Translations under genes and position numbers: made by a program
From: Raja brachyura
Taxonomy: Eukaryota
Assembly (NCBI GenBank): GCA_963514005.1
Contig: OY740800.1
Coordinates: 24,862,001 to 24,926,000 of the forward strand
Direction of reading: 5' to 3'
Length of the DNA: 64,000 nt
Notes under the pieces: model-generated
What the model saw: only the letters and a program-made list of their open reading frames with translations
What the model was told of the DNA's origin: nothing
The model's database searches: none
Shown: positions 1,213-64,000 of the stretch, in pieces
How the letters are laid out: every line of letters begins with the position of its first letter
How positions within the stretch are numbered: the stretch's first letter is position 1

Positions 1213-1329
1213 TTTGTCCGCAAGTATGGTCGATGGGCCTGTTGCCGAGCTTCATCACGACTACAAGTTTTCAAAATCATTTCTTCCGTTTTGTAGCTAG
1301 ATTAATCTATATTTCCAGCAACATCTGAA

Positions 1330-1570
1330 TGAACTGCAGATGCTGGTTTACACTGATGAAAGACATAAAATACTGGAGTAACTCAGCGTGTTGGGCAGCA
1401 TCTCTGGAGAAACAGTATGTTGGTGTTTTGGATCGAGACCCTTCTTCAGACGGAAGAATTTGAAGAAGTCCAAAGGCATCTGAAGAAGGGTCTCGACCTG
1501 AAATGTCACCTATTCCTTTTCTCCAGAGATGCTGCCTGACCCACTGAGTTACTCCAGTAATTTGTGTATA
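1330..1570. mobile_element. Palindromic Penelope-terminal cassette with two opposed hammerhead-like cores
   Basis: tcgagacccttcttcaga (minus-strand core) and ctgaagaagggtctcgacctgaaatgtcacct (plus-strand core) lie within inverted arms. Confidence 0.75.
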
Positions 1571-10145: not shown

Positions 10146-11205
10146 CACAATAGACAATAAGTGCAGGAGTAGGCCATTCGGCCCTTCGAGCCAGCACCAC
10201 CATTTACTGTGATCATGACTCATCATCCACAATCACTACCCTGTTTCTGCCTTCTCCCCATATCCCTTGACTCCGCTATCGTTAAGAGCTCTATCTATGT
10301 CTCTCTTGAAAGCATCCAGAGAATTGTCCTCCACTGTCTTCTGAGGCAGAGAATTCCACAGATTCACAACTCTTTGGGTGAAAACGGTTTTCCTCATCTC
10401 CGTTCTAAATGGCCGACCCCTTATTCTTACACTGTGGCCCCTGGTTCTGGGCTCCCTCAATATTGGGAACACGTTTCCTGCCTTAATAATCTTATATGTT
10501 TCAATAAGATCGCCTCTCATCCTTCTAAATTCCAGAGTATACAAGCCCAGTCGCTCCTTTCTGTCAGCATAAGACAGTCCCGCCAACCCGAGAATTAACC
10601 TTGTGAACCTACGCTGCACTCCCTCAATAGCAAGAATGTCCTTCCTCAAATTTGGAGACCAAAACTGCACACAATAGTCCAGGTGTGGTCTCTTCACAGC
10701 CTGCTGTACCTGCATGCTTACTTTCAGTGACTGATGAACAAGGACCCCCAGATCTCGTTGTACTTTGCCTTTTCCCAATTTGACACCATTCAGATAATAA
10801 TCTGCCTTCCTGTTTTTGCCACCAAAGTGGATAACCTCACATTTATCCACATTAAACTGCATCTGCCATGCATCTGCCCACTCACCCAACCTGTCCAAGT
10901 CACCCTGCATCCTCAAGGCAGCCTCCTCACAGTTCACACTACCACCCAGCTTTGTGTCATCTGTAAATTTGCTGTTACTTTTAATCCCTTCATCTAAATC
11001 ATTAATGTATATTGTAAATAGCTGCGTTCCCAGCACGAGCCTTGCGGCACCCCACTAGTCACTGCTTGCCATTCTGAAAGGGACCTGGTAATCCCTACTC
11101 TTTGTTTCCTGTCTGCCAACCAATTTTCTATCCATGTCAGTACCCTACCCCCAATACCATGTGCTCTAATTTCGCCCACTAATCTCCTATGTGGGGCCTT
11201 ATCAC
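10146..11205 (-). mobile_element. CR1 LINE 3' kilobase (RT domain, decayed)
   Basis: VTSGVPQGS / LFTIYINDLDEGI..KFTDDTKLGG...WQMQFNVDKCEVIHFG peptides with frameshifts and the CR1 3' tail at about 10150. Confidence 0.93.
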
Positions 11206-18146: not shown

Positions 18147-18266
18147 GGGTACACAAAAGGCTGGAGAAACTCAGCGGGTGTAGCAGCATCTAAGGAGCGA
18201 AGGAGATAGGCGACGTTTCGGGTCGAGACCCTTCTTCAGGATAGGCGACTTTTCGGGTCGAGACCC
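18147..18266 (-). mobile_element. Short Penelope-terminal hammerhead unit with 13-bp TSD
   Basis: TTGGTACTACTTA (18134-18146) / TTGGTGCTACTTA (18267-18279); the core gacgtttcgggtcgagacccttcttcag is partly duplicated in tandem. Confidence 0.8.
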
Positions 18267-18379
18267 TTGGTGCTACTTATTTAGTTTTCTCCCCACCCAT
18301 TCTAATTTAACTGAAGCACTTAATCTGAAAATGCAGTTTCTTATTGGGGGCAGATAATAGAAAAAGTAATGCCCTTGGA

Positions 18380-18495: not shown

Positions 18496-19869
18496 ATAGT
18501 CAGGCACAAAACAATCGACAAATAGGGAAACAAAACAAAAAATCGGAATTCCGATTTAAATCTGATGTAAGGTACATAGGGTGGGTATCGATTAATTCTA
18601 GACAACAGATTTAAAAAAATCTAACCCCATTAAATCACTCAGGGTGTATTATATGTTCAACAGTATGAAGTGCACAGGAAAACTTGCACTTCCAGAGTGG
18701 TCTATAGTGTTGTTTCTTCTGCGGACCACGGATTTATTTTAAGAGCAAAACATAAAATGCAGGGGAACTCAGCAGGTCAGGCTGGATCTATGGAGGGTCC
18801 GAAGAAGGGTCTCGACCCAAAACGTCTCCTATTCCTTCTCTCCAGAGATGCTGCCGGACCCGCTGAGTTACTCCAGCATTTTGTGTCTATCTATGGAGGG
18901 AATGGCTAGGCGACGTTTAGGGTCGGGTCCCTTCTTCAGGCATTTTTTAAGGGGTTGGGAAGGAACGAAAATTTAATGTATTTAAATATGTTGTTACGAA
19001 TATAACCAGTAATGTGGGAAAAAAATTCTGTGATCCATAATTGCCACATACATACCCAAAAGTAGAAATGTAGAAAGTTACAGTGTGCCCAAAAAAATAG
19101 ATATTAGGAGCTTTGTAGTCTCCTTGTACCAATCATACGCCAAATTCAAAATTCTATATTTTGAAAATGGGCGATGGAAAAAGTAGCATGTTCTCTGGAA
19201 AGGCTTATCCTAAAATAATTGATCGGAAGGGTGTGACTTTCAGTCAGGACGTCTGTATCATTCAGTCAACGAGCTCGCGGTCCGGAGCCCTTCTCTATTA
19301 CCCCCCTACATAAAAACAACGTGTCAATGCCTCTTCAAGGTCTACTAATCCACCAGTAGCTTCAGTTGCAGGTACAGCTGAAGGGATTTGTCGCTCGGGC
19401 GACACTATGAATTTATATGAATTTTAAAAATCCGATACGTTTAAATCGTTCAAAAGCTACAAACACAATGTGATAAATAACACTAAATAAAACTGAAGCA
19501 AATAAAGGCAAACAGAAGAACTAACCTTGAAGGTGAGAGAGAAAACAAAACACATAAACCTTTTAAAAAAAGATTCATATAACATCCCTAAATGACGGGT
19601 ACAAATGATTAAATAACTTGGGTGGACAAAAATGCTGGAGAAACTCAGCGGGTGAAATGATGCCTCAACCGCTGAGTTTCTCCAGCATTTTTATCTACCT
19701 TCGATTGTTCCAGCATTTGCAGTTCAGCGGGCTAGGCGGCACCCGCGGATGGAACAGGCCAGGAGCCGTCACGGGCCAGGGCTCCCCCCCGGGCCCCCAC
19801 CCCCAACAGGAAGGAACTGCAGATGCAGCCGTCCCCTCAAAACGCCAATTGATTCCGGGAATGCCGAGG

Positions 19870-20090: not shown

Positions 20091-20654
20091 AAATAACGTG
20101 GAATAATAAAATAACGTGACTACCTGCACACCAGAAGAAGTCCATGCTCACGGTCCAGAACAATGACAGTGAGTTTTAAGAAATTCCCCCATCAATTTTA
20201 TTCAAAGGAACGCGGCATCATGAGTACATGGTCACAAAAACAATTACATTTACTGAGGAATGTGGATCGATGCATTGGTGACACATTGTATAACTTTGTG
20301 TTAAATACTGGCTGTTAACAAGTGCTAACAGTGGTAGTTAACAAATTGTTTTCGTCTCATGGCCGGTGCAGCGATGTTTCGTTGTAACGATTATCCATGG
20401 TCGTTTTAAAAAAAAATCCGTATTTAACAACTCCCTTCTTATACAGAAATTAGACATGAACTGGTAACTGAAAAGTTGTGGAACACCGTCCCCCTGCATA
20501 CCCCCCGATTGCCATCACTGTTTACGACAGGGAAAAAAAACCCAACCCAGCCATTCCTTACCACTCAAACCTCTCAGACCCGGTAATCGCCCTGTAAATT
20601 ATTTTTGCTCTCTTTCCAATTTAACAACACCCTTCTACAGCGGGGCAAACAGAA

Positions 20655-21020
20655 GATAGAAACATAGAAAATAGGCGCAGGAGTAGGCCATTCGGCCCTT
20701 CGAGCCTGCACTGCCATTCAATATGATCATGGCTGATCATCCAACTCAGTATCCTGTACCTGCCTTCTCTCCATACCCCCTGATCCCTCTAGCCACAAGG
20801 GCCACATCTAACTCCCTCTTAAATATAACCAATGAACTGGCCTCAACTACCTTCTGTGGCAGAGAATTCCAGAGACTCACCACTCCCTGTGTAAAAAATG
20901 TTTTTCTCATCTCGGTCCTAAAAGACTTCCCCCTTATCCTTAAACTGTAACCCCTTGTTCTGGACTTCCACAACATCGGGAACAATCTTCCTGCATCTAG
21001 CCTGTCCAACCCCTTAAGAA
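20655..21020 (-). mobile_element. Young CR1 3' end
   Basis: LKGLDRLDAGRLFPML..FFTQGVVSLWNSLPQK peptide plus 3' tail. Confidence 0.92.
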
Positions 21021-21289
21021 CAGTACACATTGGTCTAAATGTGGACTTTCCAGCATCTTGTACTGTTGTAAAATAAGAACTAATTTCCAATATTATGACA
21101 GATGAAAGCAGGTGTGCCAAATAAGTTAAATAGACACAAAGTGCTGGAGCAATTCAGCGGGTCAGGCAGCATCTCTGGAGAAAATGGATGGGTGGCGTTT
21201 CAGGTTTGGGCGGGTGAAGAGCTGGTGGTGAGAAAAGATCAGGACCAATCAAGACTGGCCACAAATGACCTCAGGCAGGACAGCGCCTG

Positions 21290-24685: not shown

Positions 24686-25099
24686 TACAGATCCTCAATT
24701 CTGTCCTAATTATTAACTACTAAAATGTGAAAAAACAAATCGAAGAGGAACTTCAGTACTAAAGTTCAAAGCTTATTTACTTGAGTTGCTCAACTGAAGG
24801 CCTACTGCCCAAAATCTCAAATATAAAAATTAAGTTATTATTTTAAGCTAAAAGCACGTTGTAATTAGAGTAAGTAATTCAGCTGGCTAGGCAGCATATG
24901 TGGAGTGAAATGGACAAACAGCGTTTTGGGTTTGGACCCTTCTTCAGAATGTCAACGCCTGCAGTACCTTGTGCCTTATTTTAACTTGAAGGTCCATTTA
25001 TCATGTGCTAACAGCCACATAAAAAAAATTTCAATGAATATTATTCCTACAACATAAAAATTGCCACTGGTAAAATAAAACTCAGATGATATTTATCCA

Positions 25100-25145
25100 T
25101 ATGACCAAATGGTGCCTGCGCAATAACCTGGCCCTGAACACCAGT
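25100..25145 (+). mobile_element. Rex1/Babar fragment, 5' part of the element split by CR1
   Basis: KWCLRNNLALNTS matches the Rex/Babar motif WCxxNNLxLNxxKTKELIVDF, which resumes as ELIVDF at about 27994. Confidence 0.7.
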
Positions 25146-27993
25146 GTTGTAAAAACAAGCCTGAAGGCTTTGTGTCACAATGCAAGGAGCATTCGTAATA
25201 AGGTGGATGAGTTGAAGGTGCAGATAGCTATTAATGACTATGATATAGTTGGGATCACGGTGACATGGCTCCAGGGTGACCAAGGCTGGGAGCTGAACAT
25301 CCAGGGATACTCAATATTCAGGATGGATAGACAGAAAGGTAAAGGAGGTGGGGTAGCGTTGCTGGTTAGAGAGGAGATTAACGCAATAGAAAGGAAGGAC
25401 ATTAGCTTGGAGGAGTGGAATCGATATGGGTGGAGCTGCGAAACGCTAAGGGGCAGAAAACACTAGTGGGAGTTGTGTACAGGCCACCTAACAGTAGTAG
25501 TGGAGTTGGGGATGGCATCAAACAGGAAATGGGTGAATTCAATCTACATATAGATTGGGTGAATCAAATTGGCAGGGGTGCCGAGGAAGAGGATTTCTTG
25601 GAATGTATGCCGGATAGTTTTCTAAACCAACATGTAGAGGAACCAACGAGAGAGCAGGCTATTTTAGACTGGGTATTGAGTAATGAGGAAGGGTTAGTTA
25701 GCAGTCTTGTTGTGTGTGGCCCCTTGGGCAAGAGTGACCATGATATGGTTGAGTTCTTCATTAGGATGGAGAGCGACATAATTAATTCAGAAACAAGGGT
25801 TCTGAATTTAAAGAAAGTTTAGCCAAGATAGACTGGCAATTCATTCTTAAAGAGTTGACAGTGGATGTCCAATGGAAGGCATTTAAAGACTGCATGGATG
25901 AACTACAACAATTGTTCATCCCAGTTTGGCAAAATAATAAATCAGGGAAGGTAGTGCATCTGTGGATAACAAGGGAAATCAGGGATAGTATCAAAACAAA
26001 AGATGAAGCATACAAATTAGCCAGTAAAGGCAACCTACCAGAGGACTGGGAGAAATTCAGAGTCCAGCAGAGGAGGACAAAGGGCTTAATTAGGAAAGGG
26101 AAAATAGATTATGAAAGAAAACTGGCAGGGAACACGAAGACTGACTTAAAAGTTTTTATAGATATGTGAAGAGAAAAAGATTAGTTAAAACAAATCTAGG
26201 TCCCTTGCAGTCAGAAGCAGGTGGATTGATCATGGGGAACAAGGACAATGCAGACTAATTGAATAACTACTTTGGTTCTGTCTTCACTAAGGAAGACATA
26301 AATAATCTGCCGGAAATAGCAGGGGACCGGGGGTCAAATAAGATGGAGGAACTGAGTGAAATCCAGGTTAGCCGGGAAGTAGTCTTGGGTAAATTGAATG
26401 GATTAAAGGCCAATAAATCCCCAGGGCCAGATAGGCTGCATCCCAGAGTACTCAAGGAAATAGCCACAGAAATAGTGGATGCATTAGTGATAATTTTTCA
26501 AAACTCTTTAGATTCTGGAGTAGTTCCTGAGCATTGGAGGGTAGCTAATGTAACCACACTTTTAAAAAAAGGAGGGAGAGAGAAAACGGGGAATTACAGA
26601 CCAATTCGTCTAACATCGGTAGTGGGGAACTGCTAGAGTCAGTTATTAAAGATGGGATAGCAGCGCATTGGGAAAGTGGTGAAATCATTGGACAAAGTCA
26701 ACATGGATTTACGAAAGGTAAATCATGTCCGACGAATCTTATAGAATTTTTCGAGGATGTAACTAGTAGAGTGGATAAGGGAGAACCAGTGGATGTGTTA
26801 TATCTGGACTTTCAGAAGGCTTTCGACAAGGTCCCACAAAACAGATTAGTATACAAACTTAAAGCACAACGTATTGGGGGTTCAGTATTGATGTGGATAG
26901 AGAATTGGCTGGCAGACAGGAAGCAATGGTTAGGAGTAAAGGGGTCCTTTTCAGAATGGCAGGCAGTGACTAGTGGGGTACCGCAAGGCTCAGTGCTGGG
27001 ACCCCAGCTATGTACAATATATATTAATGATTTGGACGAGGGAATTGAATGCAACATCTCCAAGTTTGCGGATGACCCGAAGCTGGGGGCAGTGTTAGGT
27101 GTGAGGAGGATGCTAGGAGGCTGCAAAGCAACTTGGATAGGCTGGGTGAGTGGGGCAAATGCATGGCAGATGCAGCATAATGTGGATAAATGTGAGGTTA
27201 TTCACTTTGGTGGCAAAAACAGGAGAGTAGATTATTATCTGAATGGTGGCCGATTAGGAAAAGGGGAGATGCAACAAGACCTGGGTGTCATGGTACACCA
27301 GTCATTGAACGTAGGCATGCAGGTGCAGCAGGCAGTGATGAAAGCGAATGGTATGTTAGCATTCATCGCAAAAGGATTTGAGTATAGGAGCAGGGAGGTT
27401 CTACTGCAGTTGTACAGGGTTTTGGTGAGACCACACCGGGAGTATTGCGTACAGTTTTGGTCTCCAAACCGGAGGAAAGACATTCTTGCCATAGAGGGGG
27501 TACAGAGAAGGTTCACCCGACTGATTCCTGGGATGTCAGGACTTTCATATGAGGAAAGACTGGATAGACTCAGCTTGTACTCGCTAGAATTTAGAAGTTT
27601 GAGGGGGGATCTTATAGAAACGTACAATGTTCTTGAGGGGTTGGACAGGCTAGATGCAGGAAGATTGTTCCCGATGTTGGGGAGGTCCAGAACAAGGGGT
27701 CACAGTTTAAGGATAAGGGGGAATTCCTTTAGGACCGAGATGAAGAAAACATTTTTCACATAGGGAGTGGTGAGTCTCTGGAATTCTCTGCCACAGAAGG
27801 TACTTGAGGCCAGTTCATTGGCTATATTTAAGAGGGAGTTAGATGTGGCCCTTGTGGCTAAAGGGATCAGGGGGTATGGAGAGAAGGCAGGTACAGGACA
27901 CCGAGTTGAATGATCAGCCATGATCATATTGAATGGCGGTGCAGGCTCGAAGGGCCGAATGGCCTACTCCTGCACCTATTTTCTATGTTTGTA
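25146..27993 (+). mobile_element. CR1 LINE with near-complete ORF2 (APE endonuclease plus RT), inactivated
   Basis: NARSIRNK..GITVTWL..GGGVAL, SDH, KSPGPD..HPRVLKE, NYRPI, LDFQKAFDKV, SGVPQGSVLGP and FADD motifs across 5 frames; premature TAG at 27761; intact 3' tail. Confidence 0.96.
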
Positions 27994-28742
27994 TGAACTG
28001 ATTGTGGACTTTGGAATGGGGAGGATGGGGACCCACAGTCCCGTTCATATCAACGGGTTGATGGTGGAAAGGGTCAAGAGCTTCAAATTCCTGGGCGTGC
28101 ATATCTCTGAAGATCTTTCCTGGTCCGAGACCACTGATGCATCATAATCAGCGCCTCTACTTCCTGAGAAGATTATGGCGTGTCAGTGTGTCAAGGAGGA
28201 TTCTCTCTAACTTCTACAGGCACACAGTGGAGAGCATGCTGACTGGTTGAATCGTGGCTTGGTTAGGAAACTTGAGCGCCTTAGTGCGGAAAAGACTACA
28301 AAAAGTGGTAAACACTGCCCAGTCCATCAAAGGCTCTGACCTCCCATCCATCGAGGGGATTTATCGCAGTCGCTGCCTCAAAAAAGCTGGCAGTGTCATC
28401 AAGGACCCACACCATCTGGACCACTCATCTCCCCACTACCTTCAGGTAGAAGGTACGGGAGCCTGAAGACTGCAACGAGGAGGTTCAGGATCAGCTTCTT
28501 CCCCACAGCCATCAGGCTACTAAACTCGGCTCGGGCAAAACTCTGAACATTAATAGTGCATTATCTGTTTATTTGCACTTTATCAGTTTAATTATTCATG
28601 CGTGTATATATTTATGCAATGGTATATGGACACACTGATCTGTTCAGTATTTGTGCCTACTATGTTCTGGTCTGCTAAAGCAAGGCAAGAATTTCATTGT
28701 CCTATCAGGGACACATGACAATAAAACTCACTTGATCTTGAG
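27994..28742 (+). mobile_element. Rex1/Babar LINE 3' part
   Basis: ELIVDF..VERVKSFKFLGVHISEDLSW, RKRLQKVVNTAQSI..LPSIE..RCLKKA..IKDP and FFPTAIRLLN peptides; tail aatttcattgtc...catgacaataaa. Confidence 0.9.
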
Positions 28743-30462: not shown

Positions 30463-30662
30463 NNNNNNNNNNNNNNNNNNNNNNNNNNNNNNNNNNNNNN
30501 NNNNNNNNNNNNNNNNNNNNNNNNNNNNNNNNNNNNNNNNNNNNNNNNNNNNNNNNNNNNNNNNNNNNNNNNNNNNNNNNNNNNNNNNNNNNNNNNNNNN
30601 NNNNNNNNNNNNNNNNNNNNNNNNNNNNNNNNNNNNNNNNNNNNNNNNNNNNNNNNNNNNNN
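30463..30662. other. Assembly gap (200 N)
   Basis: Run of exactly 200 N; the true distance and orientation across it are unknown. Confidence 1.
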
Positions 30663-30731: not shown

Positions 30732-30884
30732 GTTTAAGAAGGGCTGCAGATGCTGGAAATCGAAGGTAGACAAAAGTGCTGGAGAAACCCAGCGGGTGAG
30801 GCAGCATCTATGGAGCGAAGGAAATATTTCCTTCGCTCCATAGATGCTGCCTCACCCGCTGAGTTTCTCCAGCATTTTTGTCTA
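30732..30884. mobile_element. Palindromic Penelope-terminal cassette with about 15-bp TSD
   Basis: aggtagacaaaagtgctggagaaacccagcgggtgaggcagcatctatggagcgaaggaaat is mirrored almost perfectly; flanks ccttatgtaccagct / ccttgtgtaccatct. Confidence 0.8.
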
Positions 30885-32250: not shown

Positions 32251-32574
32251 AAACTACAGGCGAGGGATTATTGCATCAAATCATTCATAATTCCGAGGAA
32301 GATTGACAGAATAGAGGCTATGGAGATATGGCCACTGATAAAGGTATCTAAAAACAAGGAGGCAAAATCTTAAAACGATGGGATTTCCATTGTAGCCATA
32401 GTCGTACAGCACGGAAACAGTCCGGACTTTTCTGGACTTTATCTTCTACTAAACATTATTCGCTTTATCCTGTATCTGTACACTATGGGCGGCTTGAGTG
32501 TAATCATGTGTAACACACAGCAAAAATCTTTTCACTGTACCTCCATACACGTGACAATAAACTAATCTAAAAGA

Positions 32575-32982
32575 CAATAACCAATCTTGTCTCCCTGTGG
32601 CTCAGCACTTCAACTCCCCCTCCCATTCCGAATCCAACCTTTCTGTCCTGGGCCTCCTCCATGGCCAGTGTGAGGACCACCGTAAATTGGAGGAGCAGCA
32701 CCTCATATTCCGCTTGGGCAGTTTGCACCCCAGCGGTATGAACATCTCTAATTTCAGGTAGTCCCTACTTTCTCCTCCCCTTCTCGGCTCTCCCTCAGCC
32801 CATTGTTTCTGCCTCTTCCTTTCTTCTTCCCGCTCCCCCCACCCTCACATCAGTCTGAAGAAGGGTCTCGACCCGAAACGTTGACTATTTCCTTCGCTCC
32901 ATAGATGCTGCCTCACCCACTGAGTTTCTCCAGCATTTTTGTCTACCTTCAATTTTCCAGCATCTGCAGTTCCTTCTTAAAC
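32575..32982 (+). mobile_element. Penelope-like 3' end (GIY-YIG C-terminus plus terminal repeat)
   Basis: PVAQHFNSPSHS..LSVLGLLHGQ..HRKLEEQHLIFRLGSLHPSGMNI, followed by the hammerhead-bearing repeat. Confidence 0.88.
32852..32886 (+). ncRNA. Minimal type I hammerhead-ribozyme-like motif (representative copy)
   Basis: AGT-CTGAAGA-A-GGGT(CTCG)ACCC-GAAA-CG-TT-GACT: CUGANGA and GAAA core boxes, 4-bp stem II with tetraloop and palindromic stem III, as known for Penelope-associated hammerheads; stem I is weak. Confidence 0.6.
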
Positions 32983-33564
32983 ATAAAAGATGCCCCATAT
33001 ATGTTAGTCCCATGAGTGTTTGGCTCATATCCCTCCAAACCTTTCCTATCCATGTCCAAATGTCTTTTATTGTTTCAAGATGGAGGTGGTGTACTGTAAG
33101 GGTTAAACAGACCGTAGCAACTAAAATGGAGTTGTCAGCTAACAACCATATGCAAGCTTTTCAGCTGAATTAGCAGCACCATTTGTTACGGAAGCAAGCT
33201 CACTTAAAAATAACAATAAGACGTTTGAGAAACTGCTTGGGCTAACTCAGAAGAACTAGTACATCATGCGGCCACCGACAAGGTCACAGAGATAAACGTA
33301 CCTCTCAGAGACATCTGAGACTAGCTCTGTGCCAGATGAGAGAACTAACTTGTTTTCGACACTAAGGAGGATACATAGTTTTAAACATAGCTCATTGGTA
33401 TTATTAGATTTGGGAAGAAACTCTGGCTTTTAAGATCAAAAATGCCTGCTACACATGCACTATCACATCTTTTAAGACACATTTAGACAGGTACATGGAT
33501 AGGATAGACCATTGTGGGCTCCACGTTTCCTTGGTCATCGATTTGTTCTGAAGCTCATCATGCC

Positions 33565-37215: not shown

Positions 37216-37281
37216 CTAAAAAAAATTGGCAATGGTAAAACATGGAACTGAGAGAAATGCCAGGACTGAAACATATCCTCG

Positions 37282-38185
37282 GTTACACAAAAAGCTGGAG
37301 AAACTCAGCGGGTGCAGCAGCATCTAAAGAGCGAAGGAGATAGGCGACGTTTCGGGTCGAGACCCTTCTTCAGACTGGTCAGGGATCAGGGAAACGAGAG
37401 ATATAAACAGTGATGTGGAGAGATAAGGAACAATGAGTGAAAGATATGCAAAAAAGTATTGGTGACAAAGGAAGCAGGCCATTGTAAGCTGTTTGTGGTG
37501 TGAAAATGAGAAGCTAGTGCGACTGGGGAGGGGGGGGGGGGGGGAGATGGAGAAGGAATGTCAGGGCCAGAGGGCTGAGGGAGAGGTGGGGGGGAGGCAG
37601 TCTGGGTTAACAGAATTGAGAAAATTCAATGTTTAAGCCCAGAGGATGCAGACTCCCCAAGCGGAATATGAGGTGCTGTTCCTCCAACTTGCGGTGTTGA
37701 TCACTCTGGCCGTGGAGGAGGCCCAGGACCGAGAGGTCGGATACGCAGTGGGAGGGGGAGTTGAAGTGCTGAGCCACCGGGAGGTCGGGTTGGTTATTGC
37801 GGACCGAGCGGAGGTGTTCGGCGAAACGATTGCCCAGCCTCCGCTTGGTCTCACCGATGTAGATCAGCTGGCATCTGGAGCAACGGATGCAGTAGATGAG
37901 GTTGGAGGAGGTGCAGGTGAACTTCTGTCGGACTTGGAATGACTGCTTGGGTCCCTGAAAGGAGTGGATGGGGGAGGTGAAGGGACAAGTGTAGCATCTC
38001 TTGCGGTTGCAAGGGAAAGTGCCCGGGGAAGGAGTGGAGCGGGAAGGGAAGAATTGACGAGGGAGTTGCGGAGGGAGCGGTCTTTGCGGAAGGCAGACGG
38101 GGGGAGATGGGAAGATGTGGCGAGTGGAGGGGTCACGTTGGAGGTGACGAAACTGGCGGAGGACTATCTGTTGTATGCGCTGGCT
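37282..38185 (-). mobile_element. 5'-truncated Neptune-like Penelope retroelement (young)
   Basis: Endonuclease-coding region followed by 3' UTR and terminal repeat with an intact core ctgaagaagggtctcgacccgaaacgtcgcct (37342-37373). Confidence 0.9.
37607..38040 (-). pseudogene. GIY-YIG endonuclease domain of a Penelope-like element (frame intact, RT missing)
   Basis: PGTFPCNRKRCYTC linker, NLIYCIRCSRCQLIYIGETKRRLGNRFAEH, VAQHF and KLEEQHLIFRLGSLHPLGLN motifs. Confidence 0.92.
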
Positions 38186-38309
38186 GGTAACTGCTTGGGT
38201 CACCTCCTCGTTACAGCAGGGGGCAGTGGTGAGGCAAGTTAGAGCTGCAGTATGAAAAACAATGCCTGCTACGAGAGGGAGTATCATAGACAGAAAGACA
38301 CACCAAGTA

Positions 38310-39611: not shown

Positions 39612-39785
39612 GGTGGACAAAAGTGCTGGACAAACTCAGCGGGTGCAGCAGCATCTATGAAGCAAAGGAAATAGGCAACCTTTCGGGCCGAAAGCCTTCT
39701 TCAGGCTGATGCTGCCTCACCCGCCGAGTTTCTCCAGCACTTTTGCCTAACTTCGATTTTCCAGCATCTGCAGTTCATTCTTAAA
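39612..39785. mobile_element. Palindromic Penelope-terminal cassette inside a CR1 remnant
   Basis: Inverted arms; flanks tctcatcgttcttg / tctcctcgatcttg. Confidence 0.75.
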
Positions 39786-39988: not shown

Positions 39989-39989
39989 T

Positions 39990-41237
39990 GGGTATAAGAC
40001 TGTGGGTTCTACCCTGGGTATAGGACTGTGGGTTCTACCCTGGGTATAAGACTGTGCGTTCTACCCTGGGTATAAGACTGTGGGTTCTACCCTGGGTATA
40101 AGACTGTGGGTTCTACCCTGGGTATAAGACTGTGGGTTCTACCCTGGGTATAGGACTGTGGGTTCTACCCTGGGTATAGGACTGTGGGTTCTACCCTGGG
40201 TATAGGACTGTGGGTTCTACCCTGGGTATAAGACTGTGGGTTCTACCCTGGGTATAGGACTGTGGGTTCTACCCTGGGTATAAGACTGTGGGTTCTACCC
40301 TGGGTATAAGACTGTGGGTTCTACCCTGGGTATAAGACTGTGGGTTCTACCCTGGGTATAGGACTGTGGGTTCTACCCTGGGTATAGGACTGTGGGTTCT
40401 ACCCTGGGTATAGGACTGTGGGTTCTACCCTGGGTATAAGACTGTGGGTTCTACCCTGGGTATAAGACTGTGGGTTCTACCCTGGGTATAGGACTGTGGG
40501 TTCTACCCTGGGTATAGGACTGTGGGTTCTACCCTGGGTATAGGACTGTGGGTTCTACCCTGGGTATAGGACTGTGGGTTCTACCCTGGGTATAAGACTG
40601 TGGGTTCTACCCTGGGTATAAGACTGTGGGTTCTACCCTGGGTATAGGACTGTGGGTTCTACCCTGGGTATAGGACTGTGGGTTCTACCCTGGGTATAGG
40701 ACTGTGGGTTCTACCCTGGGTATAAGACTGTGGGTTCTACCCTGGGTATAGGACTGTGGGTTCTACCCTGGGTATAAGACTGTGGGTTCTACCCTGGGTA
40801 TAGGACTGTGGGTTCTACCCTGGGTATAGGACTGTGGGTTCTACCCTGGGTATAAGACTGTGGGTTCTACCCTGGGTATAGGACTGTGGGTTCTACCCTG
40901 GGTATAGGACTGTGGGTTCTACCCTGGGTATAGGACCGTGGGTTCTACCCTGGGTATAAGACTGTGGGTTCTACCCTGGGTATAAGACCGTGGGTTCTAC
41001 CCTGGGTATAGGACCGTGGGTTCTACCCTGGGTATAAGACTGTGGGTTCTACCCTGGGTATAAGACTGTGGGTTCTACCCTGGGTATAAGACTGTGGGTT
41101 CTATCCTGGGTATAGGACTGTGGGTTCTACCCTGGGTATAGGACCGTGGGTTCTACCCTGGGTATAAGACTGTGGGTTCTACCCTGGGTATAAGACTGTG
41201 GGTTCTACCCTGGGTATAAGACTGTGGGTTCTACCCT
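39990..41237 (+). repeat. Minisatellite, 48 x 26 bp (GGGTATARGACTGTGGGTTCTACCCT)
   Basis: 1248 bp equals 48 units; A/G variant at unit position 8 and a few GACCG variants near the right end. Confidence 0.98.
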
Positions 41238-41239
41238 GT

Positions 41240-41548: not shown

Positions 41549-41614
41549 ATGGCGGAGCGTCACCGGGAGGAGCTGGACAAGGAGGCGGGCTGCGGCCCGT
41601 TGCTGCACACCGAG
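41549..41614 (+). CDS. ZDHHC17: Palmitoyltransferase ZDHHC17 (HIP14), coding exon 1
   Basis: MAERHREELDKEAGCGPLLHTE aligns with the human N-terminus as recalled (K-MADGPDEYDTEAGCVPLLHPE); strong Kozak AAGATGG and phase-0 donor GAG/GTGAGG; exon 2 not seen in the window. Confidence 0.88.
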
Positions 41615-42606: not shown

Positions 42607-42809
42607 AGGCACAAAATGCTGAAGTAACTCAGCGGGACAGGCAGCATCTCTGGAGAGAAGGAATGGATGACGTTTCGGTGAGCCTGAGAAAGGGTCTCAA
42701 CACGACACGTCACGCATTCCTTCTCTCCAGAGATGCTGCCTGTCCCGCTGAGTTACTCCAGCATTTTGTGTCTACCTTCGATTTAAAACAGCATCTGCAG
42801 TTCTTTCCT
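42607..42809. mobile_element. Palindromic Penelope-terminal cassette with 16-bp TSD
   Basis: ACACTCCCTGCTTTGT at 42591-42606 and 42810-42825; inverted arms. Confidence 0.85.
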
Positions 42810-47049: not shown

Positions 47050-47255
47050 GACACAAAATGCTGGAGTAACTCAGCAGGACAGACAGCATCTCTAGTGAGA
47101 AGGAATGGGTGACATTTCAGATCGAGACCCTTTTTTTAGACTCACTGAAACGTCACCCATTCCTTCTCTCCAGAGATGATGTCTATCCCGCTGAGTTAAT
47201 TCAACATTTTGTGCCTATCTTCGGTGTTAACCAGCATCTGCAGTTCCTTCCTACG
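47050..47255. mobile_element. Palindromic Penelope-terminal cassette with 14-bp TSD
   Basis: CATTCATGAGATTA (47036-47049) / CATTCAGGAGATTA (47256-47269). Confidence 0.82.
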
Positions 47256-48854: not shown

Positions 48855-49130
48855 TTAGTATTTTGTATCCTTTGCAAACAATGATTGCTTGAAGTCTGCG
48901 ATTCTTGGACATCACCAGTTGCTGGGTGTCTTCTCTGATGATGCTCTGCCAGGCCTGTATTGCAGCCATCTTTAGCTTATGCTTGTTTTGGGGGTAGTAC
49001 CCTTCAGTTTTCTCTTCAGGATATAAAAGGCATGCTCAATTGGGTTCAGATCGGGTGATTGACTTGGCCACTCAAGAATTGACCATTTTATACCTTTGAA
49101 AAACTCCTTTGTTGTTTAGCAGTATGATGA
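48855..49130 (-). pseudogene. Tc1 transposase, C-terminal part
   Basis: LEWPSQSPDLNPIEH..LKRK and LVMSKNRRLQAIIVCKGY motifs. Confidence 0.92.
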
Positions 49131-51840
49131 CAGGGCTCCCACTGAACTTTTTTTCTCTGTTTCCAGACGGGCAACCTAGGCAGCTTTTTAGGTTGCCAAA
49201 TGACAGTTTAGGTAGTCATTTCAGACGGCTTGCATGACGCGTGCAATAATGTGCCCGGCGAAGTGCAATAATAGTTACCAGTCGGAATTATGCACAATGA
49301 AACATTCACATATCATTTCTGCTTCAAAATAAAGTCACAAACTAAACATATTCACCAATCAAGACATGATATATACCACAATGACATGATATATACCACA
49401 ATACAGCAAAATTATAATTTCAGTATCTCAACTCCTTTTACACATTGCAATAAATGCAATTTCTATTATTTCTTTCCACTTCCAAACAAAAATCTGGTTG
49501 GATTATTCAGCGTATGATCAACCTCAGTGAGACCAAGTGCAGGCTTGGCGATCGCTTCGTACAACACCTCAACTCAGTTCGCAATAACCAACCTGATCTC
49601 CCAGTGGCTCAGCACTTCAACTCCCCCTCCCATTCCGAATGCGACCTTTCTGTCCTGGGCCTCCTCCATGGCCAGAGTGATGACCACCGCAAATTGGAGG
49701 AACAGAACCTCATATTTCGCTTGGGTAGTTTACATCCGAGCGGGATGAACATTGGCTTCTCCAATTTCAGGTAGTCCATGCTTTCTCCCTCCCATTCCCA
49801 GCTCTCCCACAGCCTACTGTCTCCGCCTCTTCCTTTCTTTTTCCTCCCCCCCCCCCCCAACATCAGTCTGAAGAAGGGTCTCGACTCGAAACGTCGCCTA
49901 TTCCTTCGCTCCAGAGATGCTGCCTCACCCGCTGATTTTCTCCAGCTTTTTTGTCTACCACCCATTCACACAAGTTCTGTTATCCCACTTTCCTCACCCA
50001 CTCACCACACAGTAGAGGCAATTTTACAGAGACAAGTTAACCTATAAAACCATGCATCTTTGGGATGTGGGAGGAAACCACACGCTTGAAGGGAGAATGT
50101 GCAAATTCAACACAGACAGTGCCCGAACACAGATCTCTGGCGTGTGAGGCAGCAAATCTACAAGCTGTGCCACTATATTTTGTTTTCCAACACACACAAA
50201 AATTATACTTTGATAACTTTGTTTACTAAAAAAAAGAAACTATCCATTTTTAGTCTCAAATCTTTAAGTGACGCTTTGTCCCCCTTTACAGCTACTGTAT
50301 GTTTTAATTCAGTTCAAGACTATGGGATGGTACATTGGCCATAAAGTTGCTGCCTAAAAGTGCCAGACACCCGGAATTGATCCTGAATATGTGTGCTGTC
50401 TGTATGGAGTTTGCTCCTTTGCCTTTGATCGCATTGGGTTTCTCCGGGTGCTCTTGTTCCCTTCCACATTCCAAAGGCGTGCAGGAACCTTTTTCAGACC
50501 CAACACAAAAAGGAATATTTTCCTTTTGTCCAGAGATTCTGTCTGACCTGTTGAGTTACTCCAGCTTTTTATGTCTATCTTCAGTTTAAACCAGCGTCTG
50601 CATTTCCTTCCTACACACACAATACTATACAATAGAACTTTATTAATCCCAGGTGGGAAATTGTGTGTGTGAGTATATATAAATTATACACACACACATA
50701 TATATATATATTTATATGGTTATATATTCATATATAAATATACACCGTTTTGTTTTCTCGTTTATAACATTGTTATAACTATGTTTACATATTCTGCTGT
50801 GCTGCTGCAAGTAAGGATTTCATTGTTCTAACTGGGACATGAGAGAATAAAACGCTCTTGACTTACGTCGCTAATGTGGGATGGAACTAGTGTACGGGTG
50901 ATCGGTGGTAGGTGTGGACTCGGTGGGCCGAAGGGCATGTTTCCATGCTGTATCTTTAAATTAAACTAAAAACACTAAAATCAGAGGGAGTATAAAGAAG
51001 GGTTTCTACCCGAAACGTTACCCAATTTCTTCTATCCAGAGATGCTGGCTGCTCCATGGAGTTGTCCTGCATAATGAAAGCATGGAATAGTCTTCACCCT
51101 ACCATAGTTACCCAACCAGACGCAACTAAATTTAAGGTATCTCTTTTTTCCCCCCAAGAACCCTTTTTTGTTTAAGCCCAAGTCAAGAGTCAAGAGAGTT
51201 TTATTGTCATGTGTCCCAGATAGGACAATGAAATTCTTGCTTGCTGCAGCACAACAGAATATGTAAACATAATACAGAACAGGAGATAAAATTTCAGTGT
51301 GTTTATATACCATAGACCATATATATATATACACAATAAATAAACAGATAAAGTGCAATAGGCTGTTATTGTTCAGAGTTTGGAGTTTGGCTCCACCACC
51401 TCCAGTTTAAATTCTATTTGGAATATTTTTGGAGGACCAGGAAACCAAGAAGCAAGTTACTCCAGCTCCAGGGAGTGATTCTGCGTTGGTTTTGAGCGGT
51501 TACGGCGAGGCCGCGACCGGACAGCAATGGTGGCCAGATCTCCTGCAATGCAAAGGGAGGGAGAAAGTGCCCAGGGCCGAACTGTTTCCGTGGCAGTGTG
51601 CATGTGCAAGGCGACCGGCCGTGCCGGCGGATGAGGAGTGGCTGGAGAGTGAATGACCGGACACGGATGGCGGGCGGAGACGGAGAATGACGGAGAGAGA
51701 GAGATAGAGAGGGGAGCCCTCTCAGAGTTGAACAGCAGGTGTCCCGGGTGCTTGCCAAGCCGGGCAAAATGATACGGCTTTTAGGTTGTCCAGCGGGACC
51801 TTAGGTGGCCATTGGCACCTGTGCAACTGTTCGAGTTCTG
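49131..51840. mobile_element. Non-autonomous CAGGGCTC-ended DNA element, copy 1 (5-bp TSD, hAT5-like)
   Basis: Ends homologous to 61104-63952; flanks GATGA / GATGG; splits the Tc1 DDE domain. Confidence 0.8.
49525..49960 (+). mobile_element. Penelope-like 3' end
   Basis: ETKCRLGDRFVQHLNSVRNNQPDLPVAQHFNSPSH...GMNIGFSNFR, then core ctgaagaagggtctcgactcgaaacgtc. Confidence 0.9.
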
Positions 51841-52465: not shown

Positions 52466-53484
52466 GTTGATAAACAGCAATAAAAGTTTCCAAAGGTGAT
52501 GGAAAGACTGGAGGAAATACTAAGTGCTGAGAGCTCTCTTGTACCTGCATTAATGAGGCATTTAATCACACCTGAGCAATTACAAACACCTGTGATGCCA
52601 TGTGTCCCAATCATTATGGTGCCCTGAAATGTATAAACATTGCTGTAATTTATGTAGAAATCAAAATGTATAAAATGTATGAAAATACCCAATAATAAAA
52701 TCTGACATTCTGTACTTTAACCACATGTGATTTCTTTCTACACTAAATCTCAAATTGTGGATTACAGGGGCAAATAAATAAATGATGGGTTTTTGTCCCA
52801 AACATTATGGAGGGCATTGTATTCCATTTGTTTAATGATGGGTAGTGTGATTATTAAACAAAATGAAAGAAGTATAGCAAGTGTATGTAGAAGGATATGA
52901 TGTGAGTTACTATAGTACATGAATGTTTTGACTTGCAGGGAAATTGGCTTAAGGATGGTTGTCAGATACTGTCCATCCAGTATCTGTCCAGGGGCTATCA
53001 GAATTTCTATTCCTTAGGGTACATGTGAGCATGTAGAATCGCATTAATGTGGTAGACAAAATCGGAGTAAATAGTGCTTATCACTAATAATGAAAAATAT
53101 TGTGGACTTAATTTAAAAAGCAATAGGTTTGATACTAAGACCAGCCAGATCCCTGCAGGTAATTAAAAAAGAATAGCCATGAGTCATTTTGCTTGTGGGT
53201 TGTTGCTGCTGTGTAGCTCCCTGTAATGAACTGTCAAAATGTATCCAATAATGTTGGGAAGAAAGGAAGTGAATTGTCATAGATTTTTGTTAGTATTTAT
53301 CATGTCATTTATTTTTGTCTCTGCTGAAATCTTGCAATTGAAATTGTAAATCCTATAAGGTAAAGTGAAATCTGGTGAGGGAGAAACAGTGGGAACAGGG
53401 GATGTTAATATTTATTTACAAAATATATGTCAACTGTGCTGGTTTAGGAGCTGGGAGATGGAAAACAGCATAACACTGAGCGAA

Positions 53485-54200
53485 GATGGGCACAAAATGC
53501 TGGAGTAACTCAGCGGGACAGGCAGCATCTCTGGATAGAAAGAATGCGTGATGTTTTGGGTCGAGATCCTTCTTCAGACTGAGTCGGGAGAGGGAGATAC
53601 AGAGATAAGGAAATGTAAGGTGTGAAAATGAGACAAGGGGGATGGGGATCAAGGGACATGTAGAATAGATTATTGGGTGTACACAAAAGGCTGGAGAAAC
53701 TCAGCAGGTGCAGCAGCATCTAAGGAGCGAAGGAGATAGGCGATGTTTCGGGTCGAGACCCTTCTTCAGACTGGTTAGGGATCAGGGATAGAATAGATTA
53801 TTGTTAGCTGGGAAAAGGTAACAACAAAGCAAACAGATAAACTATAAACAAGGACAGTCGGATTAGTCGGAGAAAGGGGAAGGGATGGAGAGAGAGGGAA
53901 AGCAAGGATTACTTGAAGTTAAAGGTCAATATTCATACAGCTGGGGTGTTAGCTGCCCAAGCGAAATATGATGTGTTGTTCCTCCAGTTTGTACTGGGCC
54001 CCACTCTGACGACGAGGAGGCCCAGAACAGATAGGTCAGTGTGGGAATGGGAGAGAGAGTTAAAGTCAGTCTGAAGAAGGGTCTTGACCTAAAATGTCAC
54101 CCATTACTACTATCCATAGATGCTGCCTGTCCCGCTGAGTTACTCCAGCATTTTGTGTTTATCTTTGGATTAAACCAGCATCCGCTGTTTCTTCCTACTA
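53485..54200 (-). mobile_element. Penelope-like 3' end with inverted terminal repeat and a nested younger unit
   Basis: Minus-strand terminal repeat plus GIY-YIG C-terminal remnant; plus-strand inverted repeat at 54065-54200. Confidence 0.82.
53676..53788 (-). mobile_element. 113-bp Penelope-terminal hammerhead unit with 15-bp TSD
   Basis: TAGAATAGATTATTG at 53661-53675 and 53789-53803; same subfamily as 18147-18266 and 37282-37390. Confidence 0.85.
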
Positions 54201-56644: not shown

Positions 56645-57190
56645 ACACAAAATGCTGAAGTAATTCAGCGGGACAGGCAACATCTCTGAATAGAAGGAAT
56701 GGGTGACGTATTGGGTCGAGACCCTTCTTCAGACTCAGAGTCAGAGGAGAGGGAGACACAGAGATAAGAAAGTGTAAGCTGTGACATCAAAAGAGACATC
56801 AAAGGGGATGGAGCACAAGGAAAATGAAGAATAGATCATTGTTAGCCAGGAGAAGATGACAACGAAGCAAACAGACATGAAATTTAATCAGGGGGTCAGT
56901 CAGACTGGTCGGAGAACTAGGAAGGGGGAGAGATGGAGAGAGAGGGAAAGCAAAGGTTACTTGAAGTTAGACAAGTCAATATTAATACTGCTGGGGTGTA
57001 TGCTACCCAACAAAATATGAGGTGCTGTTCCTCCAATTTGCGCTGGGCCTCACTCTGACAGTGGAGGAGGCCCAGGACAGAAAGGTCAGTGTGGGAATGG
57101 GAGGGGGAGTTGGTGTTTAGCAACTGGGAGATCAAGTAGGTTTAGGCAGACTGAGCCGAGGTGTTTAGAGAAATAATCACTGAGCCTGCA
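56645..57190 (-). mobile_element. Penelope-like 3' end
   Basis: NSPSHSHTDLSVLGLLHCQSEAQRKLEEQHLIF peptide plus terminal repeat. Confidence 0.87.
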
Positions 57191-60708: not shown

Positions 60709-61283
60709 ACCGTTGTAAGTGTCTTTAATTAAATATCAGGTGCAGGTTAAAGATCCAGCTTTCTCACAAACCAAATGTGAAATTCTACTGTACTGGGATC
60801 ACCATTTCCTAGGGGGTTCCTTTACTATGAGATCATTAACTAATCCTGCCCCATTACACAACACCACATCTAGAATAGCTTACTCCCTCGATGGTGTCTC
60901 AACAAATTGCTCTAAGAAACCAACTTGAATATATTCCTAAGACATCGTTCTCAAGGTTAGTCTTGCCGACTTGAGTCAAAACATTGGTCAGGCCACACTG
61001 GGAGTATTATGTACAGTTCTGGTTCCGACATTGTAGGATTTCTGTGATTACACTGGGATTGGGATTGAAATGGGGTGGCACAGTGGCGCAGCAGTATAGT
61101 TGCCAGGGCTCTCGCTTAACTTTTTTTCCCTGTTGCCAGCCGGGCAACCTTGACTTTTTAGGTTACCAAATGACAGTTTAGGTGGTCATTTAAGACGGTC
61201 TGCATGACGCTTGCGATAATGTGCTCGGACGAAGTGCGTAGTTACCAGTCAGAATTATGCTCAATGAAGCATTCACATATTAT

Positions 61284-61500
61284 GTTCAAGAAGGAACTGC
61301 AGATGCTGGAAAATCGAAGGTAGACAAAAGTGCTGGAGAAACTCAGTGGGTGCAGCAGCATCTATGGAGCGAAGGAAATGAGTAACGTTTCAGGCCGAAA
61401 CCCATCAGTCTGAAGAAGGGTTTTGGGCAGAAACATTGCCTATTTCCTTCACTCCATAGATGCTGCCGCATCAGCTGAGTTTCTCCAGCACTTTTGTCTA
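61284..61500. mobile_element. Palindromic Penelope-terminal cassette with perfect 14-bp TSD
   Basis: CATTCACATATTAT at 61270-61283 and 61501-61514; the paralogous empty site is visible near 49303. Confidence 0.9.
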
Positions 61501-62279
61501 CATTCACATATTATTTCTGATTCAAATAACTCAAAAACTAAACATATTCACCAATCAAGATATGGTATATACCACAATGACATGCAGCAAAATTATAATA
61601 CAATATCTCAACTCTTTTTACACATTGCAATTAATGCAATTTCTATTAGTTCTTTCCACTTCTAAACAAAAATGTGGTTGGATTATTCAGCAAATGACCA
61701 ACCTGTGTCAATAAATCCTGGACCATGCACACTACAGATATATGCAAGCATGTTTTCTGTGAAGGACCGAAAATTACCATGACATGACCATAGCATGTGT
61801 CGTTATTGCGATTGGCACAGAAACACTCTGGCTTCCCACATAATTTATCCATAACAAAATATACAGGTTGCAAGGAAATTTCTGAAGGCATTTTATGATA
61901 ATAGCTGTTAAAACTGAATATACCCATCTGACAGGTTAAACATTACACTAACTGACAAGAGATGGCCAATGGACATAACTGCAGCAAATGTTCTTTTGGA
62001 AATATGTTTATAGGTGTCAAATCAAATAATAACATTGGGAATTAAAACACATTTGATTGCATTCCATTATCAAACATAGTCAATGTTCGCTCTGAACACC
62101 ATGAATCACAATAGGGTCAGGGGGTGTGTGAATCAGTGTGGGGTGAATAGATGGCGGGCGGGCGGGGGGGGGGGGGGGGGCGGGTTGAGAAGGCAATCGG
62201 TGAGGAATGGATGGATTGAGGCAGGTGAATTAGTACGTGTTGGTTGGAGTATGTAAAATTGTGAGGGGAGAGCACGGGG

Positions 62280-62945
62280 GATGTCAGTGGTGTTGAATGG
62301 GGGATCAGTACAGGATGAATGGGGGTGCAGTACAGGATGCATGAGGTAGACAAAAATGCTGGAGAAATTCAGCGGGTGAGGCAGCATCTATGGAGCTAAG
62401 GAAATAGGCAACGTTTCGGATCGAGACCCTTCTTCAGACTGTTACCCCCATTCTTCTTGAATGGGGGGGATCAGTACAGGATGGATGGGGGGGGGGATCA
62501 GCACAAGATGAATGGGGGGGATCAGTACAGAATGAATGGGGGTTCAGGACAGTGTGGATCAGAGGGTCTGTGCAGGATGAATGGGGGGGGGGATCACTAC
62601 AGGATGAATGGGGGATCAGTACGGGATGAATGAGGGGATTAGTAAAAGATGAATTGGGAGATCACTACAGGATGGATGGGGGGTTTGGTGCAGGGTAAAT
62701 GGAAGGTGGGTCAGTACGGGATGAATGGGAGGATCAGTGCAGCGTGAATGGGGGGGAGAAGTGGGGGGAAGGGGGGTCAGTACAGGATGAATTGGGGGAC
62801 CAGTGTAGGTTTGGGGGGGGGGGGGGGGTTGGCAGGAGAATCAATGCGAGGTGGGTAGGGTAATGAATAGATGGGGAGGGGAGCACAGGGGATGTCAGTG
62901 AGGACTGAATAGAGGAGGGAATGGGGATCAGTGCGGGATGGAGAG
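62280..62945 (+). repeat. Degenerate G-rich minisatellite (GGGGGATCAGTACAGGATGAAT)n
   Basis: More than 12 imperfect units of about 22-26 bp, interrupted by a Penelope unit at about 62345-62440. Confidence 0.85.
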
Positions 62946-64000
62946 GAGGGATGCCAGGATAAGAGGTGTGGAGGGGTGCGTACAAGAGAGAGAGAGAATG
63001 AGAGAGAGAGAGAGAGAAAGGGGGGGGAAGGGGCAGAGGAGGTGGGGAGGAAAGAACGTCAGTGATCCTCGGACAACATCGCCCCGCTGCCTTGGCTGTC
63101 CCTGTCCAACACCAAAGTGCCGCCAGCAAAGGGGGAGGTGGTTGGGAACTCGTCGCCACCGCCTCCCCTCCTCCGCCAGCCGACAGCAAGGTGCGGGGCC
63201 GAGCGGTGCAGCTCAAAGATCCGATTGCCATAGGATCTTTGGTGCAGCTGCTTCAGACGGCGGAAGGAGGCCTCAGCCTCCCTCTCTCCCTCTCTCCCTC
63301 TCTCCCTCTCTCCCTCTCTCCCTCTCTCCCTCTCTCCCCCTCTCCCCCTCCTTCCCTCCTCCTGGCCTTGGTGTGCGAGAGGGGTTGTATTGAAAGCGCC
63401 GTTAACGGATTTGCAGGCAGCGGCCGTTTTGGTTATCAGGGCGATAGCGGCCGCTGCCTGCAAATCAAAAGCTACTGCTGCAAATCCACCAACTGCGCTT
63501 TCAAAACAACCCCTCTCGCACGCCGAGGAGGGAGGGAGGGAGGGAGGGAGGGTGGGTGGGAGGGAGGGGGCGATGGAGGGAGAGGGAGGGAGGGAGAGGG
63601 AGGACTCCTTCGGTCGGGCGGAGTGCGGGAGGAGGAGGCGGTAGAGCCACAGTCGCGGCCGCTGCTGCCGCTGTTCAGAGCCCGTCATTCGCTCTGACCC
63701 TTCGTCACCACGCACCTGGTATCGTTGCCCCACAATCAAAGATACTAGAGGAATACAGCCGTCAACACGAAACGTCACGCTCCTATTCTCCAGAGATGTT
63801 GCCTGACCCGCGGAGTTACGCCAGTTTTTGTGTCTATCGGTATAAGCCAGTATTTGCTTGCCAAGCCGGGCAAAATGAGTACGGCGTTTAGGTTGCCCGG
63901 CAGCACTTTGGGTGGTCATTGGCAGCCGGGCAACCGCTAATTTCGAGCCCTGGTTGCTGCCTTACAGTGCCAGTGACCCACATTTGATCCCGACTATCGG

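Follow-up and report, generated by a model that had tools for sequence, protein, structure and literature searches.

The window, i.e. the whole stretch of 64,000 nucleotides analysed here, comprises a ZDHHC17-like first coding exon and pieces of a Neptune-type Penelope retrotransposon (Table 1). The exon, which we take to resemble ZDHHC17, lies downstream of a tandem array of a 52-bp unit (39989-41238, ~97% identical) that ends 310 bp upstream of it. Two motifs expected for exon 2 were not found in the 64-kb window. Purine/pyrimidine microsatellites occur at 63000-63700, in a second stretch rich in GC and CpG. Other mobile elements are present as well: decayed LINE copies with an RVT_1 domain (25074-27995, 10150-11203, 6125-6530 and 20653-21022), which are probably CR1-like, and the remnant of a hAT-type transposase (15827-16710; Pfam Dimer_Tnp_hAT).

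Read in element sense, the Penelope copies consist of the ORF end, a pyrimidine-rich UTR, a minimal hammerhead, an element end near +97 and an optional tail up to ~+128. Positions are numbered from the C of the hammerhead core (+1), and the predicted cut is after +28. A C-terminal GIY-YIG domain is encoded upstream of the same terminal segment (Pfam GIY-YIG, 23.7 bits at a cut-off of 22.6). The nearest proteins are those of skate, ray and shark (55-72% identity among the matches named). A CX2-5CxxC linker ahead of the endonuclease ties an element to Neptune and Nematis, according to the available part of Craig et al. (PMC8557442). In P0001 this linker has the form CxxxxCxxC, and its cysteines are invariant in the alignment. 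No reverse transcriptase (RT) core was found in the 64-kb window, and tblastn matches span only residues 397-595 of P0014. A type I minimal hammerhead with intact core boxes, stem II, palindromic helix III and NUH triplet is present in six of 48 arms, three of them in ORF-bearing copies. Rfam searches at gathering thresholds gave 0 matches, and so did each of the exact-pattern scans of metagenome, viral and prokaryote genome contigs.

Table 1. Coordinates of the exon, the Penelope copies and the cassettes in the window
Feature	Position	Strand	Description
Hairpin cassette	1327..1570		arms from -5 (tail) and -1 (no tail); duplication 11/11
Cassette	18147..18266	-	same-direction partial tandem: ~+6..+35, then +1..+93; minimal hammerhead intact; duplication 12/13
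Hairpin cassette	30732..30884		both arms from +32; no hammerhead core; tail on left arm; duplication 11/12
5'-truncated Penelope copy	32575..32982	+	ORF end, pyrimidine-rich UTR, intact minimal hammerhead (core C at 32855), tail
Longest Penelope copy	37281..38188	-	GIY-YIG endonuclease with CxxxxCxxC linker (Neptune-type), UTR, intact minimal hammerhead
Hairpin cassette	39612..39785		arms from -7 (no tail) and +50 (tail); 4-nt junction microhomology; duplication 12/14
First coding exon, ZDHHC17-like	41549..41614	+	GT donor
Hairpin cassette	42607..42809		arms from +19 (no tail) and -3 (tail); duplication 16/16
Hairpin cassette	47050..47255		arms from -5 (no tail) and +22 (tail); duplication 13/14
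Paralogous host repeat with empty site of the 61284 insert	49118..49524	+	84% identity on both flanks; 231-nt gap
ORF-end-bearing control copy	53481..54200		long arm 53481-54066 (-) without tail; inverted tailed arm 54066-54200 from -5; duplication 12/12
Single-arm cassette	53676..53788	-	-19..+90; within 3' UTR of older Penelope copy; duplication 15/15
Left target-site duplication of 61284 insert	61270..61283	+	14 bp, 14/14 compared with right copy
Arm 1 of 61284 insert	61284..61406	-	~+6 to +128; ~33-nt tail; without CTGA box
Arm 2 of 61284 insert	61403..61500	+	-7 to +97; no tail; minimal hammerhead decayed
Right target-site duplication of 61284 insert	61501..61514	+	14/14

Cassettes and their target-site duplications

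An earlier note on this DNA had listed seven miniature cassettes (18147-18266, 30732-30884, 39612-39785, 42607-42809, 47050-47255, 53676-53788 and 61284-61500). All seven are present, and their sole content is the 3' terminal segment of the Penelope element. This bears out that they are protein-free and consist of the terminal repeat only. The segment, 100-135 nt in length, occurs in 48 arms in the 64-kb window, i.e. about one arm per 1.3 kb, and short arms by far outnumber long ones (41 of 48). Five of the seven cassettes are head-to-head hairpins, as had been stated for most of them; the statement does not apply to the partial tandem 18147-18266 and the single arm 53676-53788. The designation hammerhead-bearing needs correction: An intact minimal hammerhead is found only in 18147-18266, one of the seven, and 30732-30884 has no core at all. 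In the forward arm of the 61284 insert, only two of four stem II pairs are left, and the helix III palindrome is broken. The predicted fold of 61284-61500 is a hairpin of -132.2 kcal/mol (z -15), a stability reached by none of 200 shuffles; predicted folds of single arms are mostly no better than those of shuffled sequences (z -0.8, 0.0, 0.1 and -2.7). An assembly gap of 200 N (30463-30662) lies 70 bp left of the 30732 cassette. The insert at 18743-18941 has three arms (reverse, forward, reverse); a 7-bp duplication may flank it but scores below the threshold used here. A single arm from -4 at 62343-62470 is situated inside a host tandem repeat, and its 5' junction has a short inverted copy of the flanking target DNA.

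Direct repeats of 12-16 bp flank all seven listed cassettes. In the flanking-repeat test, a score of at least 8 was counted as a pass, and 393 random position pairs served as null; all seven cassettes passed compared to 6 of the 393 pairs, which confirms the long direct repeats reported before. Among all insertions tested, 9 of 33 passed with lengths of 11-16 bp: the seven listed ones, 1327-1570 and the ORF-bearing 53481-54200. The remaining 24 are older, broken or have approximate boundaries. In the case of 30732-30884, the right copy of the duplication overlaps the element end. Tabulation of the duplications, as suggested earlier, yields a length range of 11-16 bp in the nine passing inserts, and the same length is found in ORF-bearing copies. 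Since such copies both in the window and in an invertebrate family (see below) have this duplication length, it is a property of the enzyme and not of the cassettes. The cassettes bear the signature of the enzyme of the Neptune-like element, to which they had already been tied.

The cassettes are real insertions, and the Neptune-type Penelope retrotransposon contributed nothing to them but its 3' terminal segment. For 61284-61500, the empty site near 49303 that had been proposed was found: the paralogous host repeat retains a single copy of the duplicated word near 49303-49316. A second empty site, absent from the earlier note, belongs to 53676-53788 and lies in the paralogous Penelope UTR 56740-56900. 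The host repeat (49118-49524 and 61090-61704) is unclassified, and both of its copies contain Penelope inserts at different sites, the 61284 cassette and a long copy at 49527-49959.

Four of the seven cassettes are located downstream of the ZDHHC17-like exon, and three of these four are hairpins; the other three of the seven lie upstream of it. A position in ZDHHC17 intron 1, previously assumed for all cassettes, can therefore hold for only four. By prediction, the three downstream hairpins would form dsRNA in the pre-mRNA.

5' ends at the hammerhead edge

The 5' ends of the 48 arms were mapped using six UTR-bearing references. For the breakpoint analysis, seven copies (six long ones and one that has an internal deletion) were removed and one duplicated row was reset to +7, leaving 41 short arms. 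Three arms that also begin near -3 by eye were kept at their automatic values outside the peak. Of these 41 arms, 17 begin at -7..+1 (p = 1.4e-7 compared with a uniform distribution over -20..+60), and the p value is still 1e-5 after allowing for 73 windows. Breakpoints are thus non-uniform, with 17 of 41 in an 8-nt window, as opposed to the uniform distribution of ordinary 5' truncation. The peak is ~8 nt wide and not sharp. A single arm begins at the predicted cut site (+27..+31; 2.6 expected), 11 begin inside the core (+2..+28; 13.8 expected), and a minor cluster at +32..+34 comprises three arms from two insertions. The sequence ahead of the peak arms is mostly not pyrimidine-rich, and several peak arms abut their partner arm directly. 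The peak positions are therefore genuine ends rather than UTRs of an unknown kind.

Contigs of four public runs were aligned to 32500-33070, and 15 of 633 joints were listed; two possible RNA runs among those used were classed as probably DNA. Among these 15 joints, ten have an end at 32850-32855: Eight of them lead from an unrelated repeat to 32850-32855 (-5..+1), and in the other two the strand changes at 32852-32853. Joints at -5 and -4 could be explained by the UTRs of other subfamilies, those at -3..+1 could not. Contig depth, which is no copy number, is heavy over the ORF end and the terminal segment alike. Loose contig ends at 32881 and 32889 were discarded as breakpoints and put down to private mutations in the reference copy 32575-32982. 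A recurrent stutter of the hammerhead core was observed in 18147-18268 and in contigs of run X9: The sequence reads to ~+31..+35 and restarts at -4..+1, which leaves two cores ~35 nt from each other; the direction of the stutter was read from the letters in between. It could allow a dimeric hammerhead within one RNA.

Three causes of the peak were considered. The earlier note had suggested that truncation and inversion points may be set by the ribozyme structure; the ribozyme could do so by self-cleavage or by a fold that dislodges the reverse transcriptase. In its favour, the peak falls on the 5' edge of the motif (the 5' strand of helix I), a minor cluster lies at +32..+34, and contig jumps lead from +31..+35 back to -4..-2, positions facing each other across helix I, again with the direction taken from the letters between them. 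The location at the 5' edge and neither at the predicted cut, with its single arm, nor within the core, where no excess was detected, makes the ribozyme doubtful as the cause. Furthermore, an enzyme moving 3' to 5' should stall on the 3' side of the structure, single arms mostly fold no better than shuffles, and hammerhead mutants insert normally in vitro, as far as the available text of PMC11167929 reports. Breakpoints set by the ribozyme are considered very unlikely. Hardly more credible is the main rival of the RNA 5' end discussed below, a 3' splice site at the peak, with the pyrimidine-rich stretch as intron and short copies derived from spliced RNA or splicing intermediates. All seven UTR-bearing copies have a pyrimidine fraction of 0.71-0.87 over 45 nt and AG at -3/-2, as expected for a splice acceptor, and the intron of Penelope from D. 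virilis ends at hammerhead helix I (PMC4209133, in part). On the other hand, no shared upstream exon precedes the 17 peak arms, several of which abut their partner, no donor-to-acceptor joint is among the 15 listed of 633, and the invertebrate Neptune-like family has no AG there.

The third cause, the 5' end of the RNA itself, is given an even chance. If an enzyme gets through the entire motif and halts at its far edge, the simplest reason would be the end of the template. Many cDNAs would stop at ~-3 if the template RNA starts there, with a start site just upstream of the hammerhead, and short arms would have been copied off the end of the 5' repeat in the element's own transcript (run-off). 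In five of seven UTR-bearing fish copies, the core is preceded by an initiator-like YCAGT; a TATA word is present in only one of the seven, which counts against a nearby start site. Together with the TATA box and the conserved A of the invertebrate relatives, the initiator-like word may mark an RNA start near the hammerhead, but this is suggestive only. A match to the downstream promoter element near +25..+30 was dropped because the hammerhead needs those bases anyway. Against run-off speak the acceptor-like tract with AG and, in D. virilis, both the intron end mentioned above and a Penelope start site well upstream (PMC2377424, in part). No full-length element with a 5' repeat was found in 80 related loci; for the fish family, the terminal segment is therefore a putative mRNA 5' end. 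The peak would predict where the RNA of the element starts, and it speaks against an influence of hammerhead cleavage on the inserted product.

Two-arm inserts and their origin

Exactly one tail is present in 11 of the 12 two-arm inserts in the window. None has two tails and one has none; the count becomes 10 of 11 once 6530-7262 with its broken long arm is left out. This agrees with the inverted 5'-truncated copy and the one-sided tail of 30-40 bp of endonuclease-bearing Penelope-like elements. In five inserts (39612, 47050, 53481, 61284 and 6530), each arm contains sequence absent from the other. Hence, neither arm is a simple fold-back copy of its partner.

For the inverted ends and one-sided tails of Penelope, self-priming has been proposed on the basis of rotifer copies, and recent biochemistry shows priming on both strands. 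We favour the latter and consider it fairly probable that both nicked target strands prime reverse transcription and that two short cDNAs are joined head to head, the cassettes being the shortest ordinary products. That both arms are templated by RNA is likely. The GIY-YIG enzyme would nick twice, 11-16 nt apart, and each nick would prime one cDNA, one from the distal (tail) start and the other from the proximal start on the RNA. Both cDNAs would end early and be joined head to head, often through short microhomology. Subsequent repair would give the target duplication, and a single-arm insert would arise when only one cDNA is kept.

Two other origins were weighed against this one. Hairpins might form when one cDNA, or an antisense template, snaps back and primes itself, with the tail resulting from later resolution by the endonuclease. 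Such a model has been proposed from rotifer Penelope elements, as the accessible parts of PMC3846280 and PMC8557442 set out, and is in agreement with the perfect palindrome at the junction of 30732-30884 and the 4-nt fold-back microhomology in 39612. As neither arm is contained in the other in five of 11 inserts, it would need extra trimming or a second RNA-templated synthesis, and we regard it as distinctly unlikely. The other origin concerns the proposal of the earlier note, a separate non-autonomous SINE- or retrozyme-like family whose short copies are transcribed and then re-copied by the Neptune-type protein. The high share of short arms (41 of 48) would fit, and the common beginning of 17 of 41 short arms resembles that of full-length SINE copies. 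A small sub-lineage (support 0.82) made up of the 61284 and 39612 arms has no ORF-bearing copy in the window, and non-autonomous Penelope derivatives have already been described (bioRxiv 10.64898/2026.07.22.740005 and PMC8557442, both in the parts available). The evidence against such a family is of several kinds. Hairpin junctions are all different, with no junction common to two hairpins, so the hairpins were not copied as units. The ORF-bearing 53481-54200 has the same arms, the same tail and a duplication of the same length class (12/12) as the cassettes. In an arm tree, the arms of cassettes are intermingled with ORF-bearing copies from the subfamilies A, B and C; this tree took in 34 of 48 arms, its alignment is short and many of its branches are weak. 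No head-to-tail array in which two or more consecutive units have a complete hammerhead was found among the 48 arms, 18147-18266 repeating only part of the core, and just one of seven cassettes has an intact hammerhead. As for a promoter of its own within the short unit, the sole sign is an initiator-like word. Finally, insertion in Anolis needs RNA up to ORF nt 172, beyond the RT starts at 111-118, and a short copy would lack this part (PMC11167929, as far as available). On these grounds a distinct family is not supported and is regarded as unlikely; with good confidence the cassettes are not a separate replicating family. They are likely the shortest ordinary products of the Neptune-type Penelope, each formed anew. 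As a family, they are ordinary Penelope debris.

Two-strand priming can be extended to a broader scheme, in which priming is coordinated with a different RNA start at each nick, the RNA starts just before the hammerhead, and run-off seeds many promoter-bearing mini-copies, some of which re-amplify in a SINE-like manner. As a whole, this scheme is rather improbable. If the coordinated-priming reading were true, the cassettes would be a genome-scale record of how Penelope inverted ends, Penelope-derived SINEs and retrozymes arise. Within ~200 bp, the miniature inserts unite the two arms, the two start sites and the target duplication. With about one arm per 1.3 kb in the window, one assembled genome would be a large test set.

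Comparison with known Penelope elements and invertebrate relatives

Inverted truncated copies, one-sided tails, solo terminal repeats and junction palindromes have been described before in the available portions of PMC8557442, PMC3846280 and PMC8969392. According to the same portions, canonical Neptune-clade Penelope-like elements (PLEs) share with the copies studied here a GIY-YIG ORF with CX2-5CxxC linker, a hammerhead in the terminal repeat, an inverted arm, a tail at one end, a target duplication and heavy 5' truncation. In contrast to canonical PLEs, both arms are here often just the ~100-130-nt terminal segment. Duplications measure 11-16 bp compared to 8-10 bp in the rotifer examples, and the portions of these accounts that were available mention no 5'-end peak at the edge of the hammerhead. 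Inverted ends and one-sided tails themselves are known. No report of the peak, and none of a strict one-tail rule read as two-strand priming, was found in the openly accessible literature, outside Dfam and Repbase. A search for Penelope work on skates or sharks yielded mainly ecology papers.

The hammerhead itself corresponds to the minimal motifs of metazoan PLEs (Cervera and de la Pena 2014, PMC4209133, in part), with CUGAnGA and GAAA boxes, an extra base before stem II, a palindromic helix III and a short helix I. There, the motifs are mostly single and derived from truncated PLEs, and minimal hammerhead pairs on opposite strands, 100-700 bp apart, have been known from Schistosoma since 2014. 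The accessible text contains no target duplications, breakpoints, tail analysis or cartilaginous fish; in the cassettes studied here, most cores are decayed or missing. Retrozymes have been proposed to be non-autonomous Penelope derivatives (PMC7229834; bioRxiv 10.64898/2026.07.22.740005; both in part). In these sources, as far as available, non-LTR retrozymes are, like the cassettes, protein-free, hammerhead-related, derived from PLE terminal repeats and, when duplications are present, flanked by long ones. They differ in their head-to-tail repeats, a full hammerhead per unit and circular RNAs, whereas the cassettes are head-to-head or single and start just upstream of the core.

The closest biochemical parallel considered is the PAc protein of the Anolis Poseidon element (Frangieh et al. 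2024, PMC11167929), of which part of the account was available. PAc, a predicted dimer, nicks and extends both strands; its two internal RT start sites delimit the tail, and insertion does not depend on cleavage by the hammerhead. It belongs to a clade different from Neptune-type elements, and the available text makes no connection between these properties and inverted arms, the length of duplications or 5' ends. As start sites did not differ between strands in vitro, the Anolis data offer no explanation for the one-tail rule (PMC11167929, in part).

As an outgroup, 80 metagenome loci of invertebrate relatives, chosen by their endonuclease, were inspected. Inverted arms are common among them. 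Duplications of 13-16 bp were found in five of 11 inserts tested, with a sixth uncertain; the search margin was wider here and no null was used. Exactly one tail is present in eight of ten two-arm loci; the other two are unclear, since the long arm of L025 ends early and an insertion has split off the tail of L051. The 5'-end peak is weak, three of 22 unselected arms starting from -10..-6. A conserved A at -7 was found in 21 of 32 copies, and TATAAA at ~-37, 30 nt upstream of this A, in nine of 12 printed copies. The family has a ~50-nt tail and a TATA box upstream of the hammerhead (L077, L004, L019, L041, L069 and L070). A miniature hairpin also occurs in this invertebrate Neptune-like family, at L077:1848-2028.
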